Shown here: piece after piece, positions 7,587 through 63,021 of the stretch
Numbering within the stretch: the stretch's first letter is position 1
How the letters are laid out: every line of letters starts with the position of its first letter
Assembly: GCA_964604275.1 (NCBI GenBank)
Contig: CAZRYH010000002.1
Location: 2,413 to 66,412, forward strand
Length of the DNA: 64,000 nucleotides
Source: an uncultured Gammaproteobacteria bacterium
Lineage (GTDB): Bacteria > Patescibacteriota > Patescibacteriia > 2-12-FULL-60-25
Direction of reading: 5' to 3'
Notes under the pieces: generated by a model
The model's database searches: none
What the model saw: the letters and a program-made list of their open reading frames with translations, nothing else
Told to the model about the DNA's origin: nothing
Program-made: the position numbers and the translations under genes

Positions 7587-7867
7587 AATTGGTACGCTCG
7601 GCAGACCGGTCGCATCTTTAGCCTAAGACAAACGTCGGAACACCCATTCCATGTGACACTTGTGATTCTGTGTTTTTCCCGCTAATTAAGCCTATTTCTT
7701 TGGGAATCCACTAATATCGTCGGAAGGCGAAAAGTTGCTATGCGACCGCAGATGCTTTACCGGTTCAGCCGAGACGGATTATTGAAATTGAATGCACGGC
7801 CAGAATACCAAAGGCAGGGGGTTTTGGCAACCAGGGGTTTTGGATAAAAAAAGAAGCCCGTAGGGCT

Positions 7868-37134: not shown

Positions 37135-38064
37135 TTAAGACTTGATGCCAGCCTGAAGGGTTTTGATTTTTTCAGCGGCCGACTTGAGAGCCTCCCTTTC
37201 CTGTTCAGATAAATCCAATTCAATTATTTTTTGCACGCCTTGGCGCGAGAGGACGGCGGGCACGCCCATGAACACGTCTTGTTGTCCGTATTCGCCTTGG
37301 AGCAGGCACGAGCAGGGGAGCGTGGTCTGGCGATCGTTCAAGATGGCGTCAGCCATTTCCGCGATGGAAAAGCCAGGGGCGTAATAGGCGCTGCCCGTCT
37401 TGAGCAATCCAACGATTTCCGCGCCACCGTTTTGCGTGCGCGCCACCAGTGCTTGGATTTTTTCAGCGTCCAACGCGTGGGTCAAAGGCTTGCCGTCCAC
37501 CGTGGCCGCGGAAATCACTGGCACCATCTCGTCGCCGTGACTGCCCAACACCATGGCTTGGATTTTTTCCGGCGCCACGCCAAGTTCGCGCCCCGCGAAC
37601 AACCGGAAGCGCGAAGTGTCTAAAACGCCGGCCATGCCTACGACTCGTTGCTTGGGGAATCCGGATTGCTTCCAAGCCGCGTAGCACATGGCATCTAAAG
37701 GATTGGTCACGACCATCAAAATGGCGTTGGGCGAGTGTTGAGATACGCGTTTTGCGACAGGACCCACGATGCCCGCGTTCACGTCCAGCAGTTGTTCGCG
37801 TGTCATGCCGGGTTTGCGCGGCAGTCCGGCCGTTATGATGACTAAATCCGAACCCGCCAAATCATCTTCGCTGTTCGTGCCCGTGACCGTACCTTGGAAT
37901 CCGGCCAAAGCCGAGCATTGGCTGATGTCCAAAGCCACGCCCTGCGGACGGCCTTCCACGATATCGAACAGCACGATGTCACCCAAATTCAATTCCGCGA
38001 TCCTGAGCGCCGCGGTGGCGCCCACATTGCCCGCGCCGATGATGCTGATCTTATTTTTTGGCAT
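37135..38064 (-). CDS. mdh: malate dehydrogenase (LDH-like family)
   Basis: KISIIGAGNVGATAA, GLPRKPGMTREQLL, GSHGDEMVP. Confidence 0.85.
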   Translation of the reverse strand: MPKNKISIIGAGNVGATAALRIAELNLGDIVLFDIVEGRPQGVALDISQCSALAGFQGTVTGTNSEDDLAGSDLVIITAGLPRKPGMTREQLLDVNAGIVGPVAKRVSQHSPNAILMVVTNPLDAMCYAAWKQSGFPKQRVVGMAGVLDTSRFRLFAGRELGVAPEKIQAMVLGSHGDEMVPVISAATVDGKPLTHALDAEKIQALVARTQNGGAEIVGLLKTGSAYYAPGFSIAEMADAILNDRQTTLPCSCLLQGEYGQQDVFMGVPAVLSRQGVQKIIELDLSEQEREALKSAAEKIKTLQAGIKS

Positions 38065-43639: not shown

Positions 43640-46600
43640 ATGGAAAAAATCTTGGATAACAAAAAGGCAAAAGTAGTCGATGTGCTGCAAGATAGGATAC
43701 AGGCAGGTTCTAAGTTATCTGTCATTTCGGCGTATTTCACTATCTACGCGTTCGACAAGTTGCGGGAACAGCTTGAGCGCGTTGATAGCCTACGCTTCCT
43801 TTTTGTAGAGCCGACCTTCACTAAACAAAAAGAAGAGAAGCGTGAGTTCGTGATCAATCGCAACGAGCGTGAACGGTTCCTGTCAGGCACGGAGTTTGAA
43901 ATAAAACTAAGAAACGAATTAACCCAATCAAAGATCGCGAAGGAATGTGCGGAATGGATTCGTAACAAAGTTGAGTTTCGTTCGATGATGAAATCCGACG
44001 CTTCACAGACGCGCGCTATACATGTCAGTAATCCAAAAGAAGAATTTGTAGTTCAAGGGTCTATTGATTTCACAGCGACAGGTATCGGCGCGGTTCCGTC
44101 GCGGAAGCTCGATCTCAACATGTTCTCCAATGATCCGCAGGCGACAAGAGAGGTCCTGACTTGGTTTGATGAGATTTGGGACAACCCTGCTCTTGCAGAA
44201 GACGTAAAGGATCAGGTTCTCCAAAATATCCAGAACATCTACAAAGAAAACAGTCCGGAGTTCTTGTATTTTGTTACGCTATACAACGTCTTCCGGGAAT
44301 ATCTCGAAGAACTGACAGAGGAAAACATCCTTAAACCACGAACAGGCATCAAGGACACTACTGTATGGAACAAGCTCTACAAGTTTCAAAAAGACGGTGT
44401 CATGGGAGCGATTGCTAAACTGGAGAAGCACAACGGCTGCATCATCGCTGATAGTGTCGGGTTGGGGAAGACATTCGAAGGACTCGCTATCATAAAATAC
44501 TACGAGCTACGCAACTGCCGTGTGCTTGTTCTTGCCCCAAAAAAACTTCGTGATAACTGGACGCTCTATCGAGTGAACGACAGCAGGAACATCTTGGCGC
44601 AGGATCGTTTTGGCTATGATGTTTTGAACCATACCGATCTCAGCCGAACGAGTGGCACATCGGGCGACATCAATCTAGAGACGGTCAATTGGGGAAACTA
44701 CGACCTTGTCGTCATCGACGAATCTCATAACTTTCGTAATAACGATCCACGCAAAGACCGCAAAACACGCTATCGGAAGCTCATGGAGGATATCATTCGC
44801 AGCGGCGTGAAGACAAAAGTCTTGATGTTGTCTGCGACACCCGTAAACAATCGTTTGAATGACCTTAAAAACCAGATTGCCTTTATTACAGAAGGCGACG
44901 ACAACGCACTCAAAGAAGATGGTATACGTAGCATCAGCGATACGCTTCGTTCCGCGCAGCTCGCGTTCAACACGTGGCTCAAGCTCCCAACAGAAGGAAG
45001 AAAGATGGGCAACCTATTGTCGTCTTTGAACATCGACTATTTTAAGCTTTTGGACGCATTAACAATCGCACGTTCGCGAAAGCACATAGAGAAGTACTAC
45101 GATTTGACGGATGTCGGCAAGTTTCCTGTTAGGCGTAAGCCGATAAACCAAAAAACAGATATTGACACAGAGGGTAATTTTCCGACGTTTGACGACATCA
45201 ACGATTCGATAAGGCGTCTGAAGCTCGCTCTCTATTCTCCCTTTACATACGTGCGGCCAGACAGAATCGCCTACTATGAGAAAAAATATGATATTCAAGT
45301 ACAGGGCGGACGCTCTGTCTTTCGTCAGGAGGATCGCGAGCGCAACCTTGTGAACCTGATGCGCGTGAATATCTTGAAGCGTCTTGAAAGTTCCGTCTAT
45401 TCCTATGACTTGACCCTACAACGCATCCACGGACGTATTGTAGGAGTTCTCAAGCAAATTGATGATATCGAGCGTACCGGTGAAGACGAAGAACAATTCA
45501 ATCTCGATAATGTAACGCAAGAAGAGGCTGTAGACGACGAAAACCTAGAGCCAGAAGATTTGATGATCGGCACGACCGTGAAAGTTGCCTTCAAAGACCT
45601 GGATCTCGTTCGTTGGCGACAGGATCTCGTTGACGATGAAAAACGTCTGTCAGGTTTGATTACTGACTCCAAACAGGTTAAACCCAAACGCGACGCCAAG
45701 CTAGAAAGACTGAAGCAAGTCATTCAAGAGAAAATGGTGCATCCGATCAACCCAGGCAATCGAAAGGTCGTTATTTTTAGTGCGTTCGCAGATACAACAA
45801 ATTACCTGTACGAGCACATAGCCAAGTGGGCAAAGAATGAGTTTGGTGTTGAAAGCGCCCTGGTTACCGGTAGTGGACCGAACTTAAGCACGGCAAGTGA
45901 CATTCCTCACCAGTTCGGAGCCATTTTGACCAACTTCTCACCATTGTCAAAAGAACGAGACAAAGTCTACCCGAACATAAAAACGAATATCGACATACTG
46001 ATCGCAACCGATTGCGTATCTGAGGGCCAAAACCTTCAGGACTGTGATTGTTTGGTGAATTATGACATCCACTGGAACCCAGTGCGAATCATCCAACGAT
46101 TTGGTCGTATTGACCGTATCGGGTCAAAAAATGACAGTATCCAATTGATAAACTTTTGGCCAAACTTAGAGCTTGATGCGTACATCCGTCTGGAATCGCG
46201 CGTACGTGGCCGTATGATGCTCTTAAACTCATCCGCGACTGGTGAAGACGACATCATCAATGAAACGGAGACGGACATAATGAACGATATTGAATATCGA
46301 AAAAACCAGCTCATGAAACTTCAAGAAGAGGTGGTGGATCTGGAGGATATCTCCGGCAATCTGTCTATCACGGACCTGACCATGAACGATTTCAAAATGG
46401 ACTTGATGGAGTACATGAAAGACCACAAACAAGAGTTGGAAAACGCCCCCCTTGGTATGTACGCCGTTGCCGATCGCACGCGCATGACAGATAGCGAGCT
46501 TAAGCCCGGCGCGATTTTCGTGCTGAAGCAGGCAGCGTTCTCGGGGTTAGAGAGTAAGGAAGTTAACGCTCTCCACCCCTACTACCTCATCTGCATCGAA

Positions 46601-46909
46601 GAAGGCGGCATTATCCGGCATGGATACACGCAGGCAAAGTACATTCTGGATATGTACAAGAAGCTTTGCCGTGGCGTGGAAGGCGTAAATGCGGATTTGG
46701 TCGCTGCGTTTGATCGCACGACAAATGAAGCCAGTGATATGCGCCTCTACTCCTCCCTGCTCGAGACGGCCATCGCGAATATCATCGGTAAAAAACAAGA
46801 AAATGTTCTTACGTCGTTATTTTCCCTAGGTAGATCACTCATTGCGGAACAAGGCCGTTTATCTGGACTGGATGATTTTGAGCTCGTTTCCTTTCTCGTG
46901 ATTAAATGA
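43640..46909 (+). CDS. SNF2-family helicase with N-terminal PLD-like domain
   Basis: ADSVGLGKTFEG, VVIDESHNFRN, ATDCVSEGQNLQD, HWNPVRIIQRFGRIDRIGS. N-terminal SVISAYFTIYAF..LRFLF segment. Confidence 0.85.
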   Translation: MEKILDNKKAKVVDVLQDRIQAGSKLSVISAYFTIYAFDKLREQLERVDSLRFLFVEPTFTKQKEEKREFVINRNERERFLSGTEFEIKLRNELTQSKIAKECAEWIRNKVEFRSMMKSDASQTRAIHVSNPKEEFVVQGSIDFTATGIGAVPSRKLDLNMFSNDPQATREVLTWFDEIWDNPALAEDVKDQVLQNIQNIYKENSPEFLYFVTLYNVFREYLEELTEENILKPRTGIKDTTVWNKLYKFQKDGVMGAIAKLEKHNGCIIADSVGLGKTFEGLAIIKYYELRNCRVLVLAPKKLRDNWTLYRVNDSRNILAQDRFGYDVLNHTDLSRTSGTSGDINLETVNWGNYDLVVIDESHNFRNNDPRKDRKTRYRKLMEDIIRSGVKTKVLMLSATPVNNRLNDLKNQIAFITEGDDNALKEDGIRSISDTLRSAQLAFNTWLKLPTEGRKMGNLLSSLNIDYFKLLDALTIARSRKHIEKYYDLTDVGKFPVRRKPINQKTDIDTEGNFPTFDDINDSIRRLKLALYSPFTYVRPDRIAYYEKKYDIQVQGGRSVFRQEDRERNLVNLMRVNILKRLESSVYSYDLTLQRIHGRIVGVLKQIDDIERTGEDEEQFNLDNVTQEEAVDDENLEPEDLMIGTTVKVAFKDLDLVRWRQDLVDDEKRLSGLITDSKQVKPKRDAKLERLKQVIQEKMVHPINPGNRKVVIFSAFADTTNYLYEHIAKWAKNEFGVESALVTGSGPNLSTASDIPHQFGAILTNFSPLSKERDKVYPNIKTNIDILIATDCVSEGQNLQDCDCLVNYDIHWNPVRIIQRFGRIDRIGSKNDSIQLINFWPNLELDAYIRLESRVRGRMMLLNSSATGEDDIINETETDIMNDIEYRKNQLMKLQEEVVDLEDISGNLSITDLTMNDFKMDLMEYMKDHKQELENAPLGMYAVADRTRMTDSELKPGAIFVLKQAAFSGLESKEVNALHPYYLICIEEGGIIRHGYTQAKYILDMYKKLCRGVEGVNADLVAAFDRTTNEASDMRLYSSLLETAIANIIGKKQENVLTSLFSLGRSLIAEQGRLSGLDDFELVSFLVIK

Positions 46910-46910
46910 T

Positions 46911-47690
46911 ATGCGCAATCTTGTCATTGAAGCCCTTGGTCTCACGAAACATCCTGCTCTTCAAAATAGTCGTGTTCCAAAAGCAGCTTTTTTTGAGCAG
47001 GAAAGCTGTGACGCACAAGATCGAAGACTTCTGACGGCTGAGGTTGATGGTTTAACTTTACTTGCAGTCTTCAATGCTACAACGACCAACCTCGCCTCCT
47101 ACCAAGATGAAGATCACAATTACGAGGAGTTGTATCTGTTCTACGTTGAACTTCGGAGCGATACGCACGTACATCATATCGCCGAGTTGCTTCATGCGAT
47201 CATCCCCAATCCTTTACTGGTCGTGTTTGCTTATGAGGGGAAAATAGCCTTGTCTGCAGCCGAGAAACGACTGAACAAAAATGAACATGGCAAGACAATC
47301 GTCGAGGGTGTTATGACGAGCCCTTGGACGTCCTTAAAGCCAACCAATGACCAAGAACGTGCATTCCTCACTTCGATAGCCATAACAAACTGGTCTCACC
47401 ACGACATACTTTCATTTCTGCGTGATGCAGAACGCCTGATCTTAGCCTCCAATCTTGCGCTGATTGCCGGGCAGTTCACCTCTAGCCGCAAGTTGGATGT
47501 AATGGACGCAACCAGACTATTGCAAGAGCATGCTATGTGCACAGAAAGGATTAACGCTTTGGAAAGAGAAGAAAAAAACACCTCCCATTTTGGGGAACGA
47601 ATGCAAATCCACCTCACCGCGAATAACGAGCGTAAAAAACTAGAGTCGTGCAGACAAACCATTAAAACCCTCGTCCAATCCCTTACTTAA
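46911..47690 (+). CDS. DUF4391-like protein
   Basis: 259 aa, sits between a helicase and a methylase. IPNPLLVVFAYEGKIALSAAEKRLNK resembles the DUF4391 core. Called from memory, not from a search. Confidence 0.55.
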   Translation: MRNLVIEALGLTKHPALQNSRVPKAAFFEQESCDAQDRRLLTAEVDGLTLLAVFNATTTNLASYQDEDHNYEELYLFYVELRSDTHVHHIAELLHAIIPNPLLVVFAYEGKIALSAAEKRLNKNEHGKTIVEGVMTSPWTSLKPTNDQERAFLTSIAITNWSHHDILSFLRDAERLILASNLALIAGQFTSSRKLDVMDATRLLQEHAMCTERINALEREEKNTSHFGERMQIHLTANNERKKLESCRQTIKTLVQSLT

Positions 47691-47695
47691 AAACT

Positions 47696-49474
47696 ATGCA
47701 AAAACTCACTCTAAATACGCATGACCTTATTGCGGACAATATCGAACAACTGAAGTCATTGTTTCCAGAGGCATTCGTCGAGGGAAAAGTGGACTTTGAC
47801 ATGCTGCGGACACTGCTTGGAGATGCGGTGGAGAAGGACAAGGAACGATTTGGCTTGTCGTGGCCAGGAAAGCAAGATGCAATCAAGATGGCACTGGTGC
47901 AAAATAGCGGTACCCTGCGACCGAAGAAGGAGGAGAGCAAAGACTGGGACACAACAGGTAATCTTTTTATCGAAGGAGATAATCTTGAGGTCTTACGCGT
48001 ATTACTCGAGACGTATCGTGGAAAGGTGAAGATGATTTATATCGACCCGCCGTATAACACGGGCAATGATTTTGTGTATAAGGACGACTTTGCGGACAAT
48101 GTGGCAAGCTATAAAGAGAAAGCCGGTGAAAACATGAAATCCAATGCGGCGACTGCAGGACGCTATCACTCTAACTGGTTGTCCATGATGTATCCGAGGT
48201 TGAAGTTAGCGAAGGAGTTTTTGAAGGATGACGGTGCAATTTTTGTGAGTATTGATGACAATGAATGTAAAAATTTGCGAAGTATGATGGATGAAATTTT
48301 TGGTGAAGAGAACTGGGCAGCTACATTCGCATGGAGAAAGACGGATAACCAACCTAATATTGGAAACGTCGCCAGAGTAAAGGAATACATTGTTTGTTAT
48401 TCTCACTCAATTAAATGTTTGAGATTGAACAAGATGCGTCTCACGGATCGCGCGAAGAGAGAATATAGATATGAAGATACAAACGGAATATTTAGAAGGA
48501 CGATACTTTTAGATAAAACCAGGGGCAGGCATTACTACGACCTCAAAACACCAACCGGCAAAATATTAGGGGGTCCTTGGATGATAAGGCTTGAGGAGTT
48601 TCTAGAACTCGAAAAAGATAATCAAATATATTGGACAAGAGGTGGAGAAGAGCAACCTTACGGGAAATTGCACTTATCTAATAGTGAGGGTCAAATAACA
48701 AACGATTTTCTTGGTATTGAATACGGCACAAATCAACAAGGTAGTTTGGAATGTGAAGAGTTGTTCGGGAGCAGGGTATTTGATTTTCCCAAGCCGGTTT
48801 CATTAATCAAACATTTCGCAACAGTTGCTACGTCAGATAATGACATCATTCTAGACTTTTTTGCTGGATCTGGAACCACGGCACAAGCGACTTTGGAGCT
48901 AAATATCGAAGACAGCGCTAATCGTAAGTTTATTCTTATTCAACTACCAGAAATAACTCCAGAAGCAGGTGAAGCACGAAAGGCCGGATTTAAGACTATC
49001 GCTGATATTACAAAAGAACGCATCAGGCGTGCAGGCGAGAAGATTAAAAAGGAGAATACAGAGAAACCGCTTGATGTCGGCTTCAAAGTCTTCACCCTCG
49101 ATACCTCAAACCTCGCTCAATGGGACGAAAAAACACGCGACCTCCAAAATAGTCTTCTAAACTATACTCAAGGCATCAAGACGGATCGAGCACCGGAAGA
49201 CGTGTTGTATGAAGTCTTGCTCAAATACGGCATTGATCTGACGACACCTATTGCCACGGAATCAATCAACGGGAAACAAGTCTACAATGTCGGAGAAGGT
49301 TATCTGCTTGTTTGCTTGGAGAAAGATGTTGATCTGGCCACAATTGAGGCCATTGCCGCAAAGAAGCCATCCCGTGTCGTTTTTTTGGACAAAGGTTTTG
49401 CTGACGACGTCGTAAAACTGAATGCCGAGCAGACGCTTAAGAAAGCGGGGGTTGAGGACCTGCGTGTTTTGTAG
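47696..49474 (+). CDS. N6-adenine DNA methyltransferase (type III Mod-like, beta class)
   Basis: IYIDPPYNTGNDF (motif IV) comes before DFFAGSGTTAQA (motif I). Confidence 0.9.
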   Translation: MQKLTLNTHDLIADNIEQLKSLFPEAFVEGKVDFDMLRTLLGDAVEKDKERFGLSWPGKQDAIKMALVQNSGTLRPKKEESKDWDTTGNLFIEGDNLEVLRVLLETYRGKVKMIYIDPPYNTGNDFVYKDDFADNVASYKEKAGENMKSNAATAGRYHSNWLSMMYPRLKLAKEFLKDDGAIFVSIDDNECKNLRSMMDEIFGEENWAATFAWRKTDNQPNIGNVARVKEYIVCYSHSIKCLRLNKMRLTDRAKREYRYEDTNGIFRRTILLDKTRGRHYYDLKTPTGKILGGPWMIRLEEFLELEKDNQIYWTRGGEEQPYGKLHLSNSEGQITNDFLGIEYGTNQQGSLECEELFGSRVFDFPKPVSLIKHFATVATSDNDIILDFFAGSGTTAQATLELNIEDSANRKFILIQLPEITPEAGEARKAGFKTIADITKERIRRAGEKIKKENTEKPLDVGFKVFTLDTSNLAQWDEKTRDLQNSLLNYTQGIKTDRAPEDVLYEVLLKYGIDLTTPIATESINGKQVYNVGEGYLLVCLEKDVDLATIEAIAAKKPSRVVFLDKGFADDVVKLNAEQTLKKAGVEDLRVL

Positions 49475-49477
49475 CGT

Positions 49478-52471
49478 ATGTTGAAACTAAAATTTGACGC
49501 GCATCAAAAGTTCCAGCAGGACGCAGTCGAAGCGATTGCGGATATTTTTGACGGCCAATCGCTACGCCATTCCGCCTTCACAGCCACAAAAGGTCGTGGC
49601 CTCTTTGGAGTCATGACTGAGCTCGGCTACGGCAACAAGCTAGACCTCATTGAAGAAGATCTATTGAAGAACGTTATACGCATTCAGGATCGTAACAAAC
49701 TTAAACGCAGCATGCGTATCGTAGATGATCTCTATGGCGTTCCAAACTTCGCTGTGGAGATGGAGACAGGGACGGGCAAGACGTATGCCTACACGCGTAC
49801 GATATTTGAATTGAACCGACGTTATGGATTCTCCAAGTTCATCATCGTCGTTCCGAGCGTCGCCATTCGTGAAGGCGTAAAAAAGTCACTTGAGATTACA
49901 GAAACGCATTTTCGTGAACTTTTTCCAGACCAAGCCTATGACCACTTCGTCTATGACTCGACCAAGCTGAGTCGTGTGCGAGACTTCGCCACGAACAGCG
50001 CGATCCAAATCATGATTATCAACATCGACGCATTTCGCAAGGGATTCACCGGCGACGAGGGCGACACCAAGGCAAACGTAATCCACAAGGAGCAAGATGC
50101 TCTAAGCGGACGTAGGCCGATCGAGTTCATTCAAGCGACAAACCCAATCGTTATCATCGACGAGCCACAATCTGTCGACAACACAGACAAGGCAAAAGAG
50201 TCCATCAAGTCGCTCAATCCGCTTTGCATTTTGCGCTACTCTGCAACACATCGCGATGCGTATAATCTGATGTACAAACTCGGCCCAGTAGACGCCTGCG
50301 AACAAAAGCTCGTGAAGAGAATAGAAGTCCTTGCCATGGGGAGCGCTCCAGCCGGACCGGATATGCAGCTGGTGAGCGTCTCTGAAAAAGCTGGAAACTA
50401 CACCGCAAAGCTTGAGATTGGATGTGTAAATAAAGGCGACGGCGGTATTACTGCCAAGGCTATCACGGTCAATGCAGGAAAAAAGAGCGACCTTTTTCTT
50501 CTCTCAGGTGAAAACCCCGCCTTCAAGGGCTATCGTGTTTCAAGCGTATCTATTGCACCCGGGAATGAATACGTTGAAGTCAATGACACGATCGTCGTCA
50601 AACTCCAACAAGCGACAAATGACGACGAGCTTAAACGCGCGCAGATACGCTCGACTATCGAAGCTCATCTTGAAAAAGAAGTGCACTTGCTCGATAAAGG
50701 CATCAAGGTCCTATCGTTGTTTTTCATTGATCGCGTTGCAAACTATCGTAATCATGAAGCGGCTAATCTCAAAGGGAAGTATGCGCGTATATTTGAAGAA
50801 GAATATCTTAAAGTTGTAGCCATCCCCAAATATCAAACCCTTTTTACCACTGACTTTGTTCGTCAGTATGCTTTGACTCATGATGTCGAAAAAGCGCACG
50901 ATGGTTATTTCTCCAAGGACAAAAAAGGGAAGGTGAAAGATACTTCCGAAGGGAGAACGACTCAGGACGACCAGTCGATATACGACCTGATCATGAAAAA
51001 TAAAGAACTATTGCTAAGCTTTGACTCGCCTCTGCGTTTTATCTTCTCCCACTCTGCCCTGCGAGAGGGTTGGGATAATCCGAACGTATTTCAAATTTGT
51101 ACGCTTGTCGAAACGCAAGATGCCATGACGAAGCGACAAAAAATTGGTCGTGGATTACGTCTTCCGGTAAACCAACTGGGGGACAGGATCGTGGACGATC
51201 AAATCAATATCCTGACCGTTGTAGCCAATGAAAGCTATGAGCAGTTCGCGGAGACCTTGCAACACGAGATCGAGAGCGAAACGAACACCCGATTCGGCGT
51301 CATCACCGAGCGACTGTTCGAAGATATTCTGGTTGGTACCGAAGACACCGCGCATAGACTCGGCTATGACGCTTCAAAACGCATCCACGATCACCTACTC
51401 CAACAAGGACTTCTAGATCGTCATGATAAGGCGACAAAGGAGCTTAAGGATGCTATCGCAAGAAATGACCTCCCTGTGCCGCAAGAGTTCGTACCGCTGA
51501 AAATGGCCATTCTAGAAGAGATTGAGAAGACAACGAAACGTTTGCAGATTTTTAACGCTGGAGACAAAGAGCATGTATCTGTACACAAACAGGTTCTGCT
51601 CGATCCAAACTTCCGCGAGCTGTGGGATCGCATCAAGTGGAAGACGGTTTTTCGTTTGGATTTTGACGTGGACGGCCTAATCCAAGACTGCATCGACTCC
51701 TTAAAAGATCGCGGGAACATGCCGGAACTGACACCGAATCCCATTATCGCAAAGTGGGTCAACATCAATATCACCAATCAGGGCATTACAGCGTCCGAGC
51801 CGCATCGCATACGGACATTCGTACGCGATAACTACGAGAATCAAAACCTGCCAAATCTTCTTGAATACATTGAACGTTTCACGCGCATCAAAAAGGATAC
51901 GATTGCCAAGATTTTGGTCGGATCCGGACGTCTTGAGGAGTGTTATGTGAATCCACAGGTCTTTATGGAGACGGTCATTTCGATAATCAACAGAAACAAG
52001 ACCAAGCGCATCACAGACGGCATTCGTTACGAACGCATCGGAGATGAGTCTTTTTTTGCCCAAGAACTCTTTGAGGACGAAGAATTGCTTGGCTACCTAA
52101 AGATGAATGCCCTATCTGTCGACAAGAGCGTCTATTCTCACGTCTTGTACGACTCTGATATTGAAAGACAGTTCGCTCAACGCCTCAATGATGACGATGA
52201 TGTAAAGATGTTCATAAAGCTCCCAAGTTGGTTCAAAGTTGAAACACCACTTGGTACATACAATCCTGATTGGGCTGTCGTTCTAGAAAAGAATGGTATC
52301 GAAAAACTCTATTTTATCCTTGAAACAAAGGGTAGTATCATCGCAGAAGATCTTCGCTTCTTCGAACAAAAGAAGATCGAATGTGGCCGTAAACATTTTG
52401 CGGCTATCGGAGACGGCGTGACGTTTGATGTCGCCGAATCCTATACGCAGTGGCGAAGCAAATTGATGTAA
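49478..52471 (+). CDS. type III restriction enzyme Res-like helicase-nuclease
   Basis: METGTGKTY, IIDEPQS, helicase C-terminal motifs. C-terminal PD-(D/E)xK-like YNPDWAVV..YFILETKG. Confidence 0.85.
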   Translation: MLKLKFDAHQKFQQDAVEAIADIFDGQSLRHSAFTATKGRGLFGVMTELGYGNKLDLIEEDLLKNVIRIQDRNKLKRSMRIVDDLYGVPNFAVEMETGTGKTYAYTRTIFELNRRYGFSKFIIVVPSVAIREGVKKSLEITETHFRELFPDQAYDHFVYDSTKLSRVRDFATNSAIQIMIINIDAFRKGFTGDEGDTKANVIHKEQDALSGRRPIEFIQATNPIVIIDEPQSVDNTDKAKESIKSLNPLCILRYSATHRDAYNLMYKLGPVDACEQKLVKRIEVLAMGSAPAGPDMQLVSVSEKAGNYTAKLEIGCVNKGDGGITAKAITVNAGKKSDLFLLSGENPAFKGYRVSSVSIAPGNEYVEVNDTIVVKLQQATNDDELKRAQIRSTIEAHLEKEVHLLDKGIKVLSLFFIDRVANYRNHEAANLKGKYARIFEEEYLKVVAIPKYQTLFTTDFVRQYALTHDVEKAHDGYFSKDKKGKVKDTSEGRTTQDDQSIYDLIMKNKELLLSFDSPLRFIFSHSALREGWDNPNVFQICTLVETQDAMTKRQKIGRGLRLPVNQLGDRIVDDQINILTVVANESYEQFAETLQHEIESETNTRFGVITERLFEDILVGTEDTAHRLGYDASKRIHDHLLQQGLLDRHDKATKELKDAIARNDLPVPQEFVPLKMAILEEIEKTTKRLQIFNAGDKEHVSVHKQVLLDPNFRELWDRIKWKTVFRLDFDVDGLIQDCIDSLKDRGNMPELTPNPIIAKWVNINITNQGITASEPHRIRTFVRDNYENQNLPNLLEYIERFTRIKKDTIAKILVGSGRLEECYVNPQVFMETVISIINRNKTKRITDGIRYERIGDESFFAQELFEDEELLGYLKMNALSVDKSVYSHVLYDSDIERQFAQRLNDDDDVKMFIKLPSWFKVETPLGTYNPDWAVVLEKNGIEKLYFILETKGSIIAEDLRFFEQKKIECGRKHFAAIGDGVTFDVAESYTQWRSKLM

Positions 52472-53181
52472 GTCAAATAGGTCCTTCTATTCGCGGCAAG
52501 CACTCCTATCACTGACCGTCAGTTACAGAATAATCGTGTCCTTAGCGACTCCTTCAAACATGACCGTGTGGTCCCGAAGGACATTGAGGGGCTCTACATC
52601 TTCCACTCGTCCAATAGTTAGACATCCTGATAAAATTACAAATGGAAGGTGATTATAGAGTGAAAGGAAAGCTGTTCCTGGACGGACTACAGTGGCATTT
52701 CGAGAACCCCTGATTTGCTGGCCAAGCGATAATATTGAAAATATCGCATACATCTTGGAGCGCCATCCAGCATCGACGATGCGAATATTTGAACTCAAAG
52801 ATAAATTGAGCCACTAGCTACAATAGACTACCAAGACTTATCGAAAGCAGCACGTAAAGTCTTGGACGTACTGAACGCCAATATACCAGCACCTGTCGAA
52901 CCTACGTATTATTTCCGCAAAAGAGAGCAAGGACCTATTCTTGTTTTGCGTCTACTTATTGGCGACTGGCTCTACTGTTATCCATGGTCTTACGCTATCC
53001 ACCTAATGACGTTCGGGCTGACAGGATGGTTTCTAAGGGCAGTGGGGTTTTGGGTTTATTAACATCTTATACTTGATAGTTACGAGATATGCGTAGTTAA
53101 ATGGATAATCGTCTGTGTTCTAGCTCGTTCACTTACGGTGAGGAGGACCATAAATTCTAATAATACGATTACATCACTAAT

Positions 53182-53385
53182 ATGATAAAAGTTGACCAAG
53201 ACTCCATAGATCCGATTAACCGCGCGAGCAAAATAACCTGCAAATGTGAGCACTGCTCCTCAATAATAACAATCCATGTGACTAACGGATTCGACGTGGA
53301 CGACAAGGGTGAATGTATTGATGCAGGGGTAATCGAGGGCCTGATGAAGGACCTATCCTGCGAGGCCTGTGGGAGCAAATTCTAA
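53182..53385 (+). CDS. small Cys-containing protein (possible zinc ribbon)
   Basis: 67 aa with CKCEHC ... CEACG. The stop codon lies 7 nt before the next ATG. Confidence 0.4.
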   Translation: MIKVDQDSIDPINRASKITCKCEHCSSIITIHVTNGFDVDDKGECIDAGVIEGLMKDLSCEACGSKF

Positions 53386-53392
53386 CAAAAAT

Positions 53393-54301
53393 ATGCCTGA
53401 CAAAGCTTGTCCGTTATGTAAGAATGCCGCGATCATAGAGAATCAGTTTCCGAAGTCAACCATATTCGTGGAATGCGACCGATGTGGAAGATACGAAATA
53501 AGTACAATGTTGAATGCAAGCGAGGTACTTAATAAATACAGGACGGCGCTTTCTGGACTATGTCGTGAATTAACCGAGACGCATCAGGATCTTCCCGTCT
53601 TAACCACCTCTCTTGATGAGCTTGTTAAGAATTTTCCAGTACCGAATATGGATGATTTGGAGGCTAAGCTTGAAAAGCTACTGGCCGCCATCAAGCGTAA
53701 ATCAAAATACTTTGGATATCTTGTAGAGCTTGATTATGACAAGGATTATCCCTTAGCGTATGCCCAGAACGGCGACGAGCTCTTTGCTTTCATTAATCAG
53801 CTAAGAGCCATGGGGCTACTCGAGCTCAAGAGTGAAGATAGCCAAACGAAATTCGTATCCCTGTCAGGTGAGGGATGGAAGCAACTGTCTAGGCTAACAA
53901 AAACAATAAAACAGAAGCAGGGTTTCGTGGCCGCCTGGTTCGATCCAAGCACCGACGAAAGCATTTCAACCATAAAACAAGCAATTGAGTCCTGTGGCTT
54001 TGCTCCTATGTGCATAAAGACGGAGCACTTCAAAGAGACGATAATGGATAAGGCCTTAGGGGAACTACAAAACAGTAGGTTTGTCGTTGTGGACCTAACA
54101 GGCTCACGCCCTAGTGTATTTTTTGAGGCGGGTTACGCCCGAGCCCTCAACATCGAGACTATTTTTGTCTATAAGGAAGATGAAGCTGAAAAACAAAAAT
54201 TAGAATTTTACGTTAAGCATTACCAGTGCCACAAATACAATGATATGGACGAGTTAGGCGAGATTATTAAAAATGCGATCAGCTCAAGAATTAAAGATTA
54301 A
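53393..54301 (+). CDS. Zn-ribbon / winged-helix / NDT- or TIR-like Rossmann domain protein
   Basis: CPLCKN..CDRCGR. FINQLRAMGLLELK..SLSGEGW (wHTH-like). C-terminal GFVAAWFD..FVVVDLTGSRPSVFFEAGYARAL. Confidence 0.55.
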   Translation: MPDKACPLCKNAAIIENQFPKSTIFVECDRCGRYEISTMLNASEVLNKYRTALSGLCRELTETHQDLPVLTTSLDELVKNFPVPNMDDLEAKLEKLLAAIKRKSKYFGYLVELDYDKDYPLAYAQNGDELFAFINQLRAMGLLELKSEDSQTKFVSLSGEGWKQLSRLTKTIKQKQGFVAAWFDPSTDESISTIKQAIESCGFAPMCIKTEHFKETIMDKALGELQNSRFVVVDLTGSRPSVFFEAGYARALNIETIFVYKEDEAEKQKLEFYVKHYQCHKYNDMDELGEIIKNAISSRIKD

Positions 54302-54693
54302 GATTCTAGATACGCCGCTTTGCCCTTATAAAAAATAATCAGGTTGGCCAACGTGAATAACAGGCCGGTCATTTCGATTGCGGTTCTGTACCCGTAAAAG
54401 CCTGCCACGGAGATACTCAAAACAGACCTGAATACCCACATTCCGGAGACGAAGAACAGTAAGAATAGGCCCCACGATTTTCGTTTGATCAGACCCACAA
54501 TCATTATTGCCATTGTTAGACTTAGAATCCAGTAAGCGGGCGCGAAGATTCCCCTTATACCTGACACAACAGGGTCATTATAGTCAGACGATCCAATGCT
54601 CAACCCAAGGTTAGCTACAATCAGTGCTATTAGAAGTAATGAAGAAAAAAAATAAGTGAATATCTTACGCCACCAGTTGTAAAAATTTGTCAT
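54298..54693 (-). CDS. hypothetical 4-TM membrane protein
   Basis: 131 aa, four hydrophobic helices. Its 3' end overlaps the convergent gene by 4 nt. Confidence 0.5.
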   Translation of the reverse strand: MTNFYNWWRKIFTYFFSSLLLIALIVANLGLSIGSSDYNDPVVSGIRGIFAPAYWILSLTMAIMIVGLIKRKSWGLFLLFFVSGMWVFRSVLSISVAGFYGYRTAIEMTGLLFTLANLIIFYKGKAAYLES

Positions 54694-54709
54694 AGTTCAT
54701 TTGATCTAC

Positions 54710-54946
54710 TCACTTATAACCCGGCGAAAGTAGACGATAAAGAGAGTCAGTGATGCGCTCAAGGTCCCTTGCGGGAATAGAACGCCAGACTTCCTTGATC
54801 CAGCCAGTTGTTTGGTCGGTTAGGTCAACGCGGAAGTTGCCGTTTTTATACGGCGTAACTTTTAAGTCATAGCGAGTGTTGGGTACTCGTATATGCCAGA
54901 AGGGCGCGTCTTCACCCTTCCAGACGATGTCAGCGCAGGGGAGCAT
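54710..54946 (-). CDS. hypothetical small protein
   Basis: 78-aa ORF in the same operon-like string. No motif. Confidence 0.4.
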   Translation of the reverse strand: MLPCADIVWKGEDAPFWHIRVPNTRYDLKVTPYKNGNFRVDLTDQTTGWIKEVWRSIPARDLERITDSLYRLLSPGYK

Positions 54947-56685: not shown

Positions 56686-58071
56686 TTATTGGACAACTAT
56701 CAAACGACTTCGCGCTCTTGTATGAGCGACGTAAGAGATTCTGCGCTCCTCCAGCTTGTCATCAGGAGCATCTAAGCCAAGTGAAACGTTGAGGCGACTT
56801 AGGACATCCTTCCTATAAGGTTGCTTGGCATACAGAACCGTATCTGCCTCCATACCTTTAGCCCGATGAACGGTCATGAAGTTGGCAAAGGGATATTCCT
56901 TCTCCCAAGAGGCTAAGTCTACGCCATAGAGGGAATTAGACCGCGACAATACCAAACATGGCCGCCCAAGGGAGGCCAGGAACTGACGGACGCAAACTCC
57001 CCCGAGGCCACCCTTAATAAACTCGACTTCACCGCCTGATTCGTTGGTTAAACCACCGGCTCCCATGCCTCGCATCTGCTTGTTCGCGTATTCGACTATC
57101 TCCCTTCCGCTACGATAGTTAGTGAGCAGGCTTACACGAGCAGAATCACCGAAACGTCCCTCGAAGTTGCGGAAGTAGTCCAAGTTCGATCCAGCAAAGC
57201 CATTGATGGCCTGCCAATCGTCGCCAACACAATACAAGCCCATGGAGGAGTTTCTGTCCCTAAGTTTCTGGACTAAGCGGAAGAATGGACTGGAGAAGTC
57301 TTGGAATTCGTCGATACACAGGAGCTTGATTGAGCCGAAACGGACTGATTGAGAGCCTAAGCGGATTATCTGGCCGTCTTTAATGCTATCGACACCCGTA
57401 AGTGCTGCTTCGATCAGGTCATCGAAATCAATCCGGCCACTGTCCGCAAGGGCCTGCTGGTATCGCTCAAAGACATCAACGGCTAGAGTAGCCAGATTTC
57501 CTTTGCCTTTAGCCCGTTCGTTGGCTTGCTCGGGGGTGAGATTCAGGTGCTTACACTTTGAGATTAAGGCCAAGATGGAATCTCTTAGTCCGTCCTCTTT
57601 GAAGCCATATGGTCTGAGGCAATCCTCTACGATACGTTCCCTTGCCTGCCCGAAGACTAAAGTCCCACGCGCAGGCTGCACGATCGAATGCGCCAAGGCG
57701 TGGAAGGTCGAAGATGGGATCAATTTGGCTCCATATCTATCCATTCTTCGGCCTAAGCCCAAGGCGGCATTACGATTAAACGAGAGTGCTAGGATGTCTG
57801 TCGCCTTAGTGCCTTTATCGAGCTCTAACGCTGCTCTCAAGGCGATGACGGCGGTCTTGCCGGCCCCAGCTCTCGCCGTTACCAGAACATTCTTGTTAGG
57901 GACGCTAAGAGCATCCAGCTTCTCCTTACTCGGGGAAAAACCTGTGATGGACTCAAGCCATATTCTTAAGCGATCGTTATAGGGACCAGTCGGGACCGGC
58001 TGCTCTTTGGCTCTCTTTTGCTCCGCCCACCCAAACGCAAGGACAATGAGGATGATGATTAAGATGGACAT
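56686..58071 (-). CDS. UvrD/Rep-like SF1 helicase with N-terminal hydrophobic anchor
   Basis: TARAGAGKTA, CIDEFQDFS, TVHRAKGMEAD, YVAHTRARS. The N-terminus MSILIIILIVLAFGW is TM-like. Confidence 0.7.
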   Translation of the reverse strand: MSILIIILIVLAFGWAEQKRAKEQPVPTGPYNDRLRIWLESITGFSPSKEKLDALSVPNKNVLVTARAGAGKTAVIALRAALELDKGTKATDILALSFNRNAALGLGRRMDRYGAKLIPSSTFHALAHSIVQPARGTLVFGQARERIVEDCLRPYGFKEDGLRDSILALISKCKHLNLTPEQANERAKGKGNLATLAVDVFERYQQALADSGRIDFDDLIEAALTGVDSIKDGQIIRLGSQSVRFGSIKLLCIDEFQDFSSPFFRLVQKLRDRNSSMGLYCVGDDWQAINGFAGSNLDYFRNFEGRFGDSARVSLLTNYRSGREIVEYANKQMRGMGAGGLTNESGGEVEFIKGGLGGVCVRQFLASLGRPCLVLSRSNSLYGVDLASWEKEYPFANFMTVHRAKGMEADTVLYAKQPYRKDVLSRLNVSLGLDAPDDKLEERRISYVAHTRARSRLIVVQ

Positions 58072-61159: not shown

Positions 61160-62020
61160 ATGGAAAAGAATCAAAACGCAGAGTGGGCAAAGCAATACTT
61201 AAATCATTATTGGCCGGCAATTCCTCTGGGACAAAAACCAGACCTTTCATGGAAGCAAGCGCTGGTTCCCTGGCAGTCTTACGAAAATATGTTGCCGACG
61301 GAAGCAGATATTGCGTCCTGGTGGAACCAGTGGCCATTTGCAAGGGTCGGCATAATCACGGGGAAGATATCAAAATTAGTGGTCGTCGACATCGACCCAA
61401 GGCATGGCGGAAACCCGAATGAGCTCGACTTACCTCCCACCCTTATCGCCTCAACTGGCGGTGGCGGCTGGCACTACTACTATCGCTATCCGGAGCATAT
61501 GCGTATCAAAAGCCAGTCCGACATCAAAAAAGGGGTTGATATCAGGGCCGAGGGTGGGTTGGTTGTGGCCCCACCGTCAGAACATATCTCTGGAAAGAAA
61601 TACGAATGGCAAGATGAGTTCGATCCATCAATGATCGCTCCATGTCCGGATTGGATTATCGAAATAAACAAAGACATGGCTATTGCGCCATCGAGGATCC
61701 AATCTGCTTCGCCTTTAATTTACGGACGAGATCCGCTAAGCAGGGCTCTAAACGCCCCAATCAATGAAGTCATATGTTATGCGGCAAAAGCAGTTGGCGT
61801 GAGCGTGTCGTTTCGGCAAAACGGCAACAGAACGTGCCAAATAATCGAGGACGGAAGGGTTACATCAGGTTTTATCTCATCGCAAGGGAACTACTGTTAT
61901 TCAGCATCCGGCAAACTGCGCCGTGGGAACCCGATAAATGTCGCTGAATATTACATAAATGTTGTGGGAGGACGTAAGTATAGCCGCTCACAAATAATAA
62001 AAACTATCAACAACTTATGA
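61160..62020 (+). CDS. bifunctional DNA primase/polymerase (PrimPol) domain protein
   Basis: LVVVDIDPRHGG, GGGGWHYYY, DIRAEGGLVVAPPS motifs. Confidence 0.85.
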   Translation: MEKNQNAEWAKQYLNHYWPAIPLGQKPDLSWKQALVPWQSYENMLPTEADIASWWNQWPFARVGIITGKISKLVVVDIDPRHGGNPNELDLPPTLIASTGGGGWHYYYRYPEHMRIKSQSDIKKGVDIRAEGGLVVAPPSEHISGKKYEWQDEFDPSMIAPCPDWIIEINKDMAIAPSRIQSASPLIYGRDPLSRALNAPINEVICYAAKAVGVSVSFRQNGNRTCQIIEDGRVTSGFISSQGNYCYSASGKLRRGNPINVAEYYINVVGGRKYSRSQIIKTINNL

Positions 62021-63021
62021 ATTCAGAGTGTGAATTTCCGATTATCAAGTATAAAGAGCTCTGTTCTATGAATTTGCCAAAAATCAATTATTTAGTGGAG
62101 GGGTTAATTCCAGAAATAGGTTTGACCATGTTTCAAGGTCACCCTGGCACGAACAAATCTTGGTTTGCCTACTATTTAGCCTATTGTGCGGCTAACGGAT
62201 TACCCTTATTGAATACATACAAGACAAAAAAGGCTTCTGTGTTACTAGTATGCCCCGATGACTACCTACCGACCATGCAAGAAAGATTGGCGATCTTAGG
62301 CCTTGATCCCAATGTCGATATTTCGGTGCTAAATCCTGAGAAAATCCTTGACGTAGGTTCGCCGGAATTCGACCGGTTTCTGGATTACATAGAAAAAGAA
62401 AAACACGAGGTCGTGATCATAGATACCTTACGAAACATTCATCGCGCTGATGAAAACGATTCAAGTCAAATGGATATTATCATGCAGAGACTCCGTCTAC
62501 TGGCCAAGAATCGGTGCGTAGTCCTCATCCACCACCTTAATAAAAATACTTTGGTCAACACAGTTGTTGCTTCAAGGGGCTCCACGGTTATACCCGCCGC
62601 CCTGATTTCAGGGTTCAATTTCAAAAAAAATGGAGAGTACCGCTTAAGCCTCACGCAGTTCAAGAATAAAATTGGCAGGCTTCATCCCGAATTACGGCTG
62701 GAATTCAATGAGCAGATGCGAGGCATCGACATATTTAATCTCGATCTATCAAGACCCAAAGAAGAAGTCCAAAGCTCTATCTTGAAAGTGATTAAGGAAG
62801 CCTATGAAGAAAACCCCACACCGGAGTTAACCAAAAATGAATTCAAAGATCTTCTTCATGGAAGTGGCAATGGTGCATATTCCAAGAATGAAATTGATAA
62901 GGCTTATTCAGAATTGATTAAACAGGGCTTCCTTTGCCCGGACGGCATCCGTAGACAGGCTAATCGCATCTGCTACATCAAGAACCCATGCACCAGGACG
63001 ACCGAAACGGAAGCCACTTAG
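62017..63021 (+). CDS. RecA-fold AAA_25/RepA-like ATPase
   Basis: GHPGTNKSWFA (Walker A), VVIIDTLRNIH (Walker B). ATGA overlap with the PrimPol gene. Confidence 0.7.
   Translation: MNSECEFPIIKYKELCSMNLPKINYLVEGLIPEIGLTMFQGHPGTNKSWFAYYLAYCAANGLPLLNTYKTKKASVLLVCPDDYLPTMQERLAILGLDPNVDISVLNPEKILDVGSPEFDRFLDYIEKEKHEVVIIDTLRNIHRADENDSSQMDIIMQRLRLLAKNRCVVLIHHLNKNTLVNTVVASRGSTVIPAALISGFNFKKNGEYRLSLTQFKNKIGRLHPELRLEFNEQMRGIDIFNLDLSRPKEEVQSSILKVIKEAYEENPTPELTKNEFKDLLHGSGNGAYSKNEIDKAYSELIKQGFLCPDGIRRQANRICYIKNPCTRTTETEAT

Follow-up and report, generated by a model that had tools for sequence, protein, structure and literature searches.

The 64,000-nucleotide (nt) stretch of contig CAZRYH010000002.1 (assembly GCA_964604275.1, positions 2,413 to 66,412), hereafter called the window, carries in a low-GC integrative element two adjacent genes, a small one encoding a protein of 67 amino acids and a large one encoding a protein of 302 amino acids, and the large gene is the main subject of the present analysis. 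Our results revealed that the large protein belongs to a widespread family with a fixed architecture, in which a four-cysteine ribbon, a helical linker and a winged helix are followed by a C-terminal domain resembling nucleoside 2-deoxyribosyltransferase (NDT) and DNPH1. The reading that we favour, at roughly even odds (a probability of about 0.5), is that the large gene is a self-contained one-protein conflict module of the anti-phage or abortive-infection (Abi) type, which would combine a sensor with an N-glycosidase. A sensor and a nucleotide-cleaving effector in one polypeptide make a known kind of system; this architecture and its habit of residing in hsd operons, the operons of type I restriction-modification (R-M), appear to be undescribed. 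As for the small gene, it is a real, lineage-specific neighbour and not a family-wide partner.

The C-terminal enzyme domain

A preliminary description of this region, made from the letters alone, had noticed Rossmann-like motifs in the C-terminal domain of the large protein, namely FVAAWFD, VVVDLTG and VFFEAGYARAL, and these are indeed present and strongly conserved. The ColabFold/AlphaFold2 (AF2) model of the protein, built on 43 homologues and having a mean pLDDT of 88.7, predicts a five-stranded parallel sheet with beta-alpha repeats at residues 176-299. When the model was compared with the PDB by Foldseek, human and rat DNPH1/Rcl came first (probability 1.0, TM-score by target 0.64-0.78), followed by the CMP N-glycosidase BcmB and then, at lower TM-score, by the TIR structures TcpB and BtTir; the TIR structures have a TM-score by target of about 0.53 versus about 0.7 for DNPH1. 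Among viral models (BFVD), the same comparison returned a CMP/hmCMP hydrolase, several NDTs and a Cap12/PycTIR-domain protein. In the profile search of the PDB, Rcl/DNPH1 weakly matches residues 222-270.

At the level of protein families, PF05014 is the only enzyme Pfam family matched, and 21 of the 43 relatives match it at E<=0.01 (best E 2.3e-7). The window protein itself scores 21.8 bits, under the gathering threshold of 28.8, and it is a divergent branch of the PF05014-type superfamily and not a canonical member. No TIR Pfam family is matched by any of the 43 members, and a partial match to the PADLOC profile PDLC00733 'Effector TIR' (E 2.7e-8) covers 67 of its 388 positions over the D234...E245 core. 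The preliminary description had left the choice between an NDT-like and a TIR-like domain. Because PF05014 is found in about half of the relatives, TIR Pfam families in none, and DNPH1 leads the Foldseek list, the modelled C-terminal domain is an NDT/TIR-type fold nearer to NDT/DNPH1 than to TIR.

The putative active site follows the same lines. A hidden Markov model alignment places E245, within VFFEAGYA, on the nucleophile glutamate of the Rcl motif 'GVGYELGRA'. For conservation we used 77 full-length relatives from many phyla, of 25-45% identity; among these E245, G247, A180 and A249 are invariant, D234 (97%), F178 and F272 are conserved at 97-98%, and F183 and T236 at 96%. Besides these, D219, which is 78% conserved, lies two residues off the column of Rcl D69 in the sole alignment obtained.

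The ribbon, the linker and the winged helix

The three-domain architecture proposed in the preliminary description holds. The N-terminal zinc-ribbon motif, C6xxC9...C28xxC31, forms a three-stranded ribbon in the AF2 model; C28 and C31 are invariant in the 43 relatives, and all four cysteines are 89-94% conserved in the 77 diverse ones. The ribbon gives weak profile matches of Lar_restr_allev/Elf1 type, the similarity to Lar being seen in 5 of the 43 members (best E 1.6e-4), and in the PDB profile search ribbons of Elf1 or ribosomal type weakly match residues 4-36. Two linker helices (44-62 and 74-80) are predicted to follow. The middle of the protein, described earlier as winged-helix-like, has indeed the H-S-H-H-S-S topology of a winged helix at residues 89-157 of the model, with helices at 89-103, 119-122 and 127-139 and strands at 111-114, 143-148 and 152-157; the MarR/MepR matches to residues 126-202 in the PDB profile search are weak (E 0.2-0.4).

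The domains differ greatly in their rate of change. Across the family, the mean pairwise identity is 26% in the ribbon, 19% in the linker and 24% in the winged helix, versus 46% in the NDT domain, and when only pairs of 60-80% overall identity are taken, the ribbon has 47% and the NDT domain 76%. The linker has thus the lowest family-wide identity, and among close relatives it is the ribbon that varies most. Change is far quicker on the N-terminal side than in the enzyme domain, a pattern typical of proteins that couple a variable sensor with a conserved effector.

Family size and distribution

An exhaustive profile search over 1.84 billion cluster representatives found 19,462, 9,241 and 3,820 clusters (at 50% identity) at E<=1e-3, 1e-10 and 1e-30, respectively; the matches listed align end to end, and almost all have about 300-330 amino acids. 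A word-indexed search returned 50 relatives of 22-95% identity, nearly all of 300-340 amino acids and nearly all unnamed. In contigs sampled at one genome per species, at least 490 relatives are found in many phyla, for example Planctomycetota, Chloroflexota, Desulfobacterota, Bacteroidota, Bacillota and candidate phyla, and also in an archaeon; the nearest relatives of the large gene are from candidate-phyla bacteria (Kerfeldbacteria and Peregrinibacteria). Together with the malate dehydrogenase of the host, whose closest named relative is from Patescibacteria (Table 1), this makes it probable that the window comes from an uncultured CPR-like bacterium with a defence-laden island of 25 kb or more. 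Moreover, 72 IMG/VR viral contigs carry the family, and so do Bacillus mycoides megaplasmids, where PGAP names the product 'nucleoside 2-deoxyribosyltransferase', and a Leptospira plasmid, on which a SEFIR gene is its neighbour. In PHROGs the family corresponds to phrog_16139, an entry of unknown function, and NCBIfam has no model for the large protein, to which no curated family extends.

Two relatives deserve separate mention. On plasmid p4 of Leptospira interrogans (L089, 4126-6552), a relative of 323 amino acids, which matches query residues 123-300 and matches phrog_16139 end to end, comes directly after the SEFIR-domain gene and before the gene of a 770-amino-acid SAM-dependent methyltransferase, with all three co-oriented. 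A shorter relative of the C-terminal domain is found in phrog_3634, another entry of unknown function; for example gp47 of Staphylococcus phage P630 (L088, 3851-4501), with 216 amino acids, shares the D...E core at 38% identity over 77 residues, and its gene lies in the replication module on the opposite strand, a moron-like placement. Proteins of phrog_3634 are also found in 20 other Staphylococcus and Streptococcus phages.

Genomic neighbourhoods

The neighbourhoods of the family were compared by all-against-all clustering of the open reading frames (ORFs) in 82 genome or metagenome loci and 41 non-redundant viral loci, and no conserved partner gene was found among them. We also scanned 272 immediate neighbours, that is, those within two genes and of at least 100 amino acids. 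The commonest families there are those of type I R-M, with Methylase_S in 7 cases, N6_Mtase in 6 and HsdR in 5-6, and PADLOC agrees with these R-M calls; phage integrases (5) and Abi-like AAA_21/AAA_15 ATPases (6) are also found, and smaller counts are contributed by Mrr, PIN, SLFN_AlbA_2, HNH and MmeI-type enzymes, NUDIX and a conflict-type GT4.

The arrangement of the genes is similar in unrelated groups. The order HsdM-(x)-family gene-HsdS-(x)-HsdR is seen in Bacteroidota, Peregrinibacteria and Ignavibacteria (L009, L010 and L011), HsdS-family gene-HsdR in Elusimicrobia (L060), and HsdM-HsdS-HsdR followed by the family gene in L003, L033, L056 and L090. In three other loci (L059, L075 and L086), the family gene follows a PLD-SNF2 gene and an Eco57I/MmeI-type methylase, and in L059 a SLFN/NB-ARC protein comes directly after it. 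In viral loci, phage-borne hsdR and hsdM lie upstream of the family gene (L101, L104, L108 and L131), and in contigs derived from prophages the gene has a small integrase-like gene on one side and HNH/terminase genes on the other; this integrase-like gene is also found next to the plasmid copy of Bacillus mycoides. The family gene directly adjoins an hsd gene in 9 of the 13 loci whose retrieved flanks include hsd genes, versus 2.9 expected by random placement (P about 2e-4), and it is co-oriented with the hsd genes in 12 of the 13. The signal of a defence and mobile-element neighbourhood is therefore real.

Large AAA_13/SMC-type ATPases recur in the R-M loci of the family, being found in the window (40847-43477, minus strand), L003 (1-1209), L011 (7332-9896) and L075 (7156-9837). 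In L011 the ATPase lies between hsdM and the family gene, and that of L075 matches mainly SMC_N/AAA_23.

The small gene

The preliminary description had placed the two genes 7 nt apart, and both ORFs are found at the positions given there. It had also regarded them as a two-gene unit, which does not hold across the family. Copies of the small gene are known only from four related elements, namely those of the window, L095 (P0058), L006 (P0059) and L094; a database of 5.8 billion clusters holds only three members, the window's own included. Both genes occur together only in the window, L006 and L094, where the small protein of L094 has 75 amino acids and is 55% identical, its large protein being 64% identical. 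No copy of the small gene precedes the large genes of L003, L090 and L091, which are 55-58% identical, and none is present in any of the 80 genome loci or the 72 viral loci. In L095, on the other hand, the small gene (7619-7822) begins 2 nt past a type III res stop codon, with the large gene precisely missing: window 53136-53389 corresponds to L095 7575-7826, and window 54312-54913 to L095 7852-8453, with no direct repeats visible at the edges of the large-gene indel. An obligate two-gene operon is thus ruled out by co-occurrence, and since L095 has the small gene exactly without the large one, the two are best taken as independent cassettes that became neighbours in one lineage. From the layout of L095, the small protein might relate to the R-M system or to the backbone of the element rather than to the large gene.

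Purifying selection acts on both genes, which are far more than chance reading frames. Between the window and L006, the small gene has a ratio of nonsynonymous to synonymous substitution (dN/dS) of 0.22, and in the large gene the ratio over residues 86-302 is 0.011. The comparison also revealed a mosaic: window 53233-53640 and L006 7730-8140 share 72-82% nucleotide identity, whereas the flanks share 95-100%. This divergent block comprises the 3' two-thirds of the small gene and codons 1-85 of the large gene, where dS is 0.65 and dN 0.18; in residues 86-302 one position differs (dS 0.17, dN 0.002). The block suggests an imported allele, with the small protein and the ribbon exchanged as one unit, and it hints at a local link between the two genes.

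The small protein has 7 cysteines, of which C22, C25, C45, C60 and C63 are invariant in the four known copies. Its AF2 model (pLDDT 88) found nothing below E 0.7 in the PDB by Foldseek; there are weak Pfam matches to CpXC and zinc-ribbon families and a marginal PHROGs match (E 8.6e-4) to a family of unknown function, and no match in NCBIfam or PADLOC. That it arose as a duplicate of, or serves as a decoy for, the ribbon of the large protein was considered and rejected, since no homology is detectable (hhalign probability 3.6%). Altogether the small protein may modulate the large protein locally, and the family does not need it.

The integrative element

The GC content drops from 0.52-0.61 to 0.39-0.50 past ~39 kb of the window, and the part from ~39.4 kb to the window end (64000) is a low-GC mosaic integrative element. 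As noticed in the preliminary description, the gene pair follows an R-M system in this low-GC island, the system being a type III Mod/Res pair (Table 1). The element encodes small membrane proteins besides the R-M cargo and the two genes. The related elements L003, L006, L090 and L095 retain parts of its backbone and have different cargo at the same position: type I R-M and GmrSD in L006, type I R-M in L003 and L090 (with GmrSD in L090), and another type III R-M with AbiEii in L095. Between the end of res and the large gene, which begins ~920 nt further on, lie the small gene and the remnant of a membrane-protein gene that is intact in L006. The remnant marks a recombination scar where the R-M cargo ends on the right; since the DNA common to the window and L006 starts within it, at 52933, and the cargo differs between elements, the large gene is located at the edge of a cargo-swapping hot spot. 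The convergent multi-transmembrane gene on the other side, part of the backbone, has 88% nucleotide identity to L095, where the same gene abuts the small gene directly.

As for the start of the large gene, the long ORF at 53369-54301 (plus strand) would encode 310 amino acids if begun at GTG and encodes 302 from the ATG at 53393, and homologues align from the methionine of the latter. Consensus scans for promoters and terminators around the gene pair gave results no better than shuffled sequence, and a tRNA scan of the window found none. Neither gene has a recognisable Shine-Dalgarno sequence at normal spacing (53140-53181 and 53386-53392).

Table 1. Positions in the window of the gene pair, its domains and the surrounding features
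Feature	Position	Strand	Basis or remark
Malate dehydrogenase gene	37135-38064	-	Closest named relative 70% identical, Patescibacteria metagenome-assembled genome
AAA_13/AAA_21 ATPase	40847-43477	-	
HKD(PLD)-SNF2 gene, upstream cargo	43640-46909	+	Pfam, PADLOC
DUF4391 gene, upstream cargo	46911-47690	+	Pfam, PADLOC
Type III Mod, upstream cargo	47696-49474	+	Pfam, PADLOC
Type III Res, upstream cargo	49478-52471	+	Pfam, PADLOC
3' remnant of 127-amino-acid multi-transmembrane protein gene	52862-53062	+	tblastn, blastn against L006
Small gene, 67 amino acids	53182-53385	+	ORF list
Divergent mosaic block	53233-53640	+	Sliding identity against L006
Large gene, 302 amino acids	53393-54301 (ATG start, stop 54299-54301)	+	ORF list
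N-terminal four-Cys zinc ribbon, residues 1-42	53393-53518	+	
Helical linker, residues 43-88	53519-53656	+	
Winged-helix-like domain, residues 89-170	53657-53902	+	
C-terminal NDT/DNPH1-like (flavodoxin-like) domain, N-glycosidase type, residues 171-302	53903-54298	+	
D234 codon	54092-54094	+	
Putative nucleophile E245 codon	54125-54127	+	
131-amino-acid multi-transmembrane protein gene, convergent with large gene	54298-54693	-	ORF list
UvrD-like helicase	56686-58071	-	
Prim-Pol	61160-62020		
AAA_25 ATPase	62017-63021		
Large serine recombinase	63414, running past the window end		

Comparison with known systems

With DNPH1/Rcl and the NDTs of PF05014 the large protein shares the fold and a common motif of a strand, an acidic-T segment, a loop and 'hhE.G.A..L', with E245 on the nucleophile glutamate. 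The identity, however, is only 11-18%, the large protein has an extra N-terminus of 170 residues with ribbon, linker and winged helix, and the context of its gene is mobile and R-M-linked and not metabolic. When the literature was searched for this architecture, only the NDT-like effectors of retrons, ThsI and a prediction from 2013 on AbiJ-NTD1-NDT fusions turned up. When a phage is sensed, the N-glycosidase of Retron-Eco1 hydrolyses NAD(P)+ and depletes the pool of adenine nucleotides (PMC12673091; bioRxiv 10.1101/2023.08.16.553469). This effector (Ec86) is similar to the large protein as a defence protein of ~300 amino acids in which an NDT-like domain, with catalytic glutamate E106, is joined to a part contacting nucleic acid; it differs in that the NDT-like domain is the N-lobe in Ec86 and C-terminal in the large protein, and Ec86 has no zinc ribbon. 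The retron effector gave no sequence match in the PDB profile search (E<=10) and is not among the top 50 Foldseek hits. Membership in a retron was rejected, as protein-domain scans found no reverse transcriptase domain either beside the window gene or in the neighbour families that recur over 122 loci, and no msr/msd adjoins the gene (Rfam was not run).

In type VIII Thoeris, ThsI carries a CMP-hydrolase-type effector domain (bioRxiv 10.64898/2025.12.03.692087). ThsI, BcmB and MilB have in common with our protein an N-glycosidase domain of the NDT superfamily, used or proposed as an immune effector on the nucleotide pool, and BcmB and the viral CMP/hmCMP hydrolase are among the structural matches of the large protein. 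ThsI has TPR-type parts and is paired with a separate TIR protein that produces the signal, whereas the large protein has no conserved partner and other N-terminal domains; with no TIR (ThsB) family among the recurrent neighbours and no conserved partner gene, membership in Thoeris was rejected as well. Fusions of AbiJ-NTD1 to NDT domains were predicted to be Abi toxins (Anantharaman et al. 2013, PMC3710099). They resemble the large protein in that one polypeptide, found in defence contexts, has a sensing part that varies at its N-terminus and a conserved enzymatic toxin at its C-terminus; the N-terminal module of the large protein is a zinc ribbon with a winged helix.

The TIR effectors, including Cap12/PycTIR, are approached through the partial PADLOC match and the fold matches to TcpB, BtTir and Cap12-PycTIR, and they are set apart by the absence of a TIR Pfam match in the 43 members, by the lower TM-score and by the lack of a cyclic-nucleotide sensor or cyclase among the neighbours. 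PrrC and RloC provide a likeness in gene order, that is, an extra co-oriented gene between or after the hsd genes and AAA_13 ATPases at several of the same loci. Their enzymes, however, are HEPN-type RNases versus the N-glycosidase fold of the large protein, whose gene is R-M-linked in only ~10-15% of loci.

A proposed stand-alone sensor and N-glycosidase

The fast evolution of the N-terminal parts and the immune precedents in the NDT superfamily lead us to favour the large protein as a stand-alone sensor and N-glycosidase, for which we infer a defence function from the context and the domain logic. In this mechanism, the fast-evolving ribbon and winged helix would sense an infection cue, which might be a nucleic acid or a protein of the phage or of an R-M system; sensing would release the C-terminal N-glycosidase; the enzyme would then break the bond between base and sugar, either in NAD(P)+ or in (deoxy)nucleotides, which might be modified ones specific to the phage; and the cleavage would starve the phage or the infected cell. 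By analogy, such logic would follow that of the NDT-like effector of Retron-Eco1 and of the CMP-hydrolase-type effector of type VIII Thoeris.

Several points weigh against this reading. Beyond the glutamate, the equivalents of the DNPH1 acid and of its phosphate-binding residues are not reliably placed by the alignment, and transcription factors likewise often join a winged helix to a Rossmann-like domain that binds a ligand. PADLOC v2 gives no full-length system match, only the partial TIR-effector match and a marginal CARF match, and no paper naming the large-protein family was found in the literature search. As for the neighbourhoods, the adjacency to hsd genes was controlled within the 13 loci and not against a genome-wide background; about 85-90% of the loci are without an R-M neighbour, so that the defence-island signal belongs to a minority of ~10-15%; and many neighbours are housekeeping-like, such as ArgJ, a chorismate-binding enzyme, glycosyltransferases and MraZ/RsmH.

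Alternative explanations

The nearest alternative supposes that the enzyme acts on DNA itself: the ribbon and the winged helix would bind DNA, perhaps that of a modified phage, and the NDT-like domain would remove bases from it, so that the abasic sites inactivate the invader, which would make the protein a type IV or glycosylase-type restriction factor and not one that depletes a metabolite pool. The fusion of N-terminal domains of nucleic-acid-binding type to an N-glycosidase fold speaks for this, as do the adjacency to R-M systems, the GmrSD type IV enzymes in related elements, and the proposal of Anantharaman et al. of DNA as the target of the NDT domains in Abi-like fusions (PMC3710099). 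However, all relatives with a characterised activity (DNPH1, NDT, the BcmB/MilB type, the Retron-Eco1 effector and TIRs) use free nucleotides or NAD(P)+ and not polymer DNA (PMC12673091), and the winged-helix assignment comes from a model and weak profile matches; we regard this explanation as unlikely, though less so than those which follow. A guard of PrrC/RloC kind, latent on the restriction complex or monitoring it and firing when an anti-restriction protein of the phage disables the complex, seems less probable again. Such a role would suit a gene that is co-oriented and tightly spaced between hsdM, hsdS and hsdR, or after hsdR, in unrelated phyla and in prophages, and whose ribbon is weakly similar to the restriction-alleviation protein Lar, but the latter may be a generic similarity of zinc ribbons. 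AAA_13 ATPases are often present in the same loci (the window, L003 and L011), and the anticodon nuclease RloC, which is linked to R-M, presumably belongs to the family PF13166 (AAA_13). Most members of the large-protein family, however, lack an R-M neighbour; the window gene is separated from res by the remnant and the small gene, and the related elements place the gene beside R-M systems of different types (I and III). About as doubtful as the guard is a composite of these ideas, in which the ribbon and winged-helix head would read the R-M state, an anti-restriction factor or phage nucleic acid, and the DNPH1-like N-glycosidase would destroy NAD(P)+ or modified deoxynucleotides as a PrrC-like back-up of restriction, with the 67-amino-acid protein tuning the head; a nucleotide-pool chemistry of this sort would be new among stand-alone defence proteins of bacteria.

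Two further explanations are more improbable than these. The pair might form a local module in this lineage of elements, with the small zinc-ribbon protein as antitoxin, regulator or co-sensor. The close spacing and common orientation of the genes agree with this, and the pair has co-diverged in three elements, the 3' part of the small gene and the ribbon part of the large one form one divergent block against L006, and the small gene is under purifying selection; against it, the small gene stands alone in L095 and the large one in L003, L090, L091 and about 150 other loci, the small protein has no detectable homology to the ribbon, and the known copies number only four. We give as little weight to a role outside defence, either as a nucleotide-responsive transcription regulator, with the NDT-like domain as ligand sensor, or as a salvage or house-cleaning enzyme of mobile elements. 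The layout of a winged helix and a Rossmann-like domain does resemble some regulators, PGAP names some members 'nucleoside 2-deoxyribosyltransferase', and many loci have housekeeping neighbours. But the invariant catalytic-type glutamate and its motif argue for catalysis over mere binding, the salvage NDTs are stand-alone enzymes of about 120-160 amino acids without ribbon or winged helix, and the patchy spread of the family, of the kind produced by horizontal gene transfer, together with carriage on prophages and plasmids and embedding in R-M loci, is atypical for salvage genes or dedicated regulators.

Implications

If the defence function of the stand-alone sensor and N-glycosidase is true, a large family would be added to the catalogue of single-gene anti-phage systems, with thousands of 50%-identity clusters in many phyla, prophages, plasmids and candidate-phyla bacteria. 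The N-glycosidase chemistry of NDT/DNPH1 type would then extend beyond retrons and Thoeris to a stand-alone sensor-effector, and the repeated insertion into type I R-M operons would be a concrete case of layered defence, with a second line at the nucleotide level. Human DNPH1 clears 5-hydroxymethyl-dUMP from the nucleotide pool; a bacterial immune relative of it, if it acts on modified nucleotides, would be an interesting parallel.

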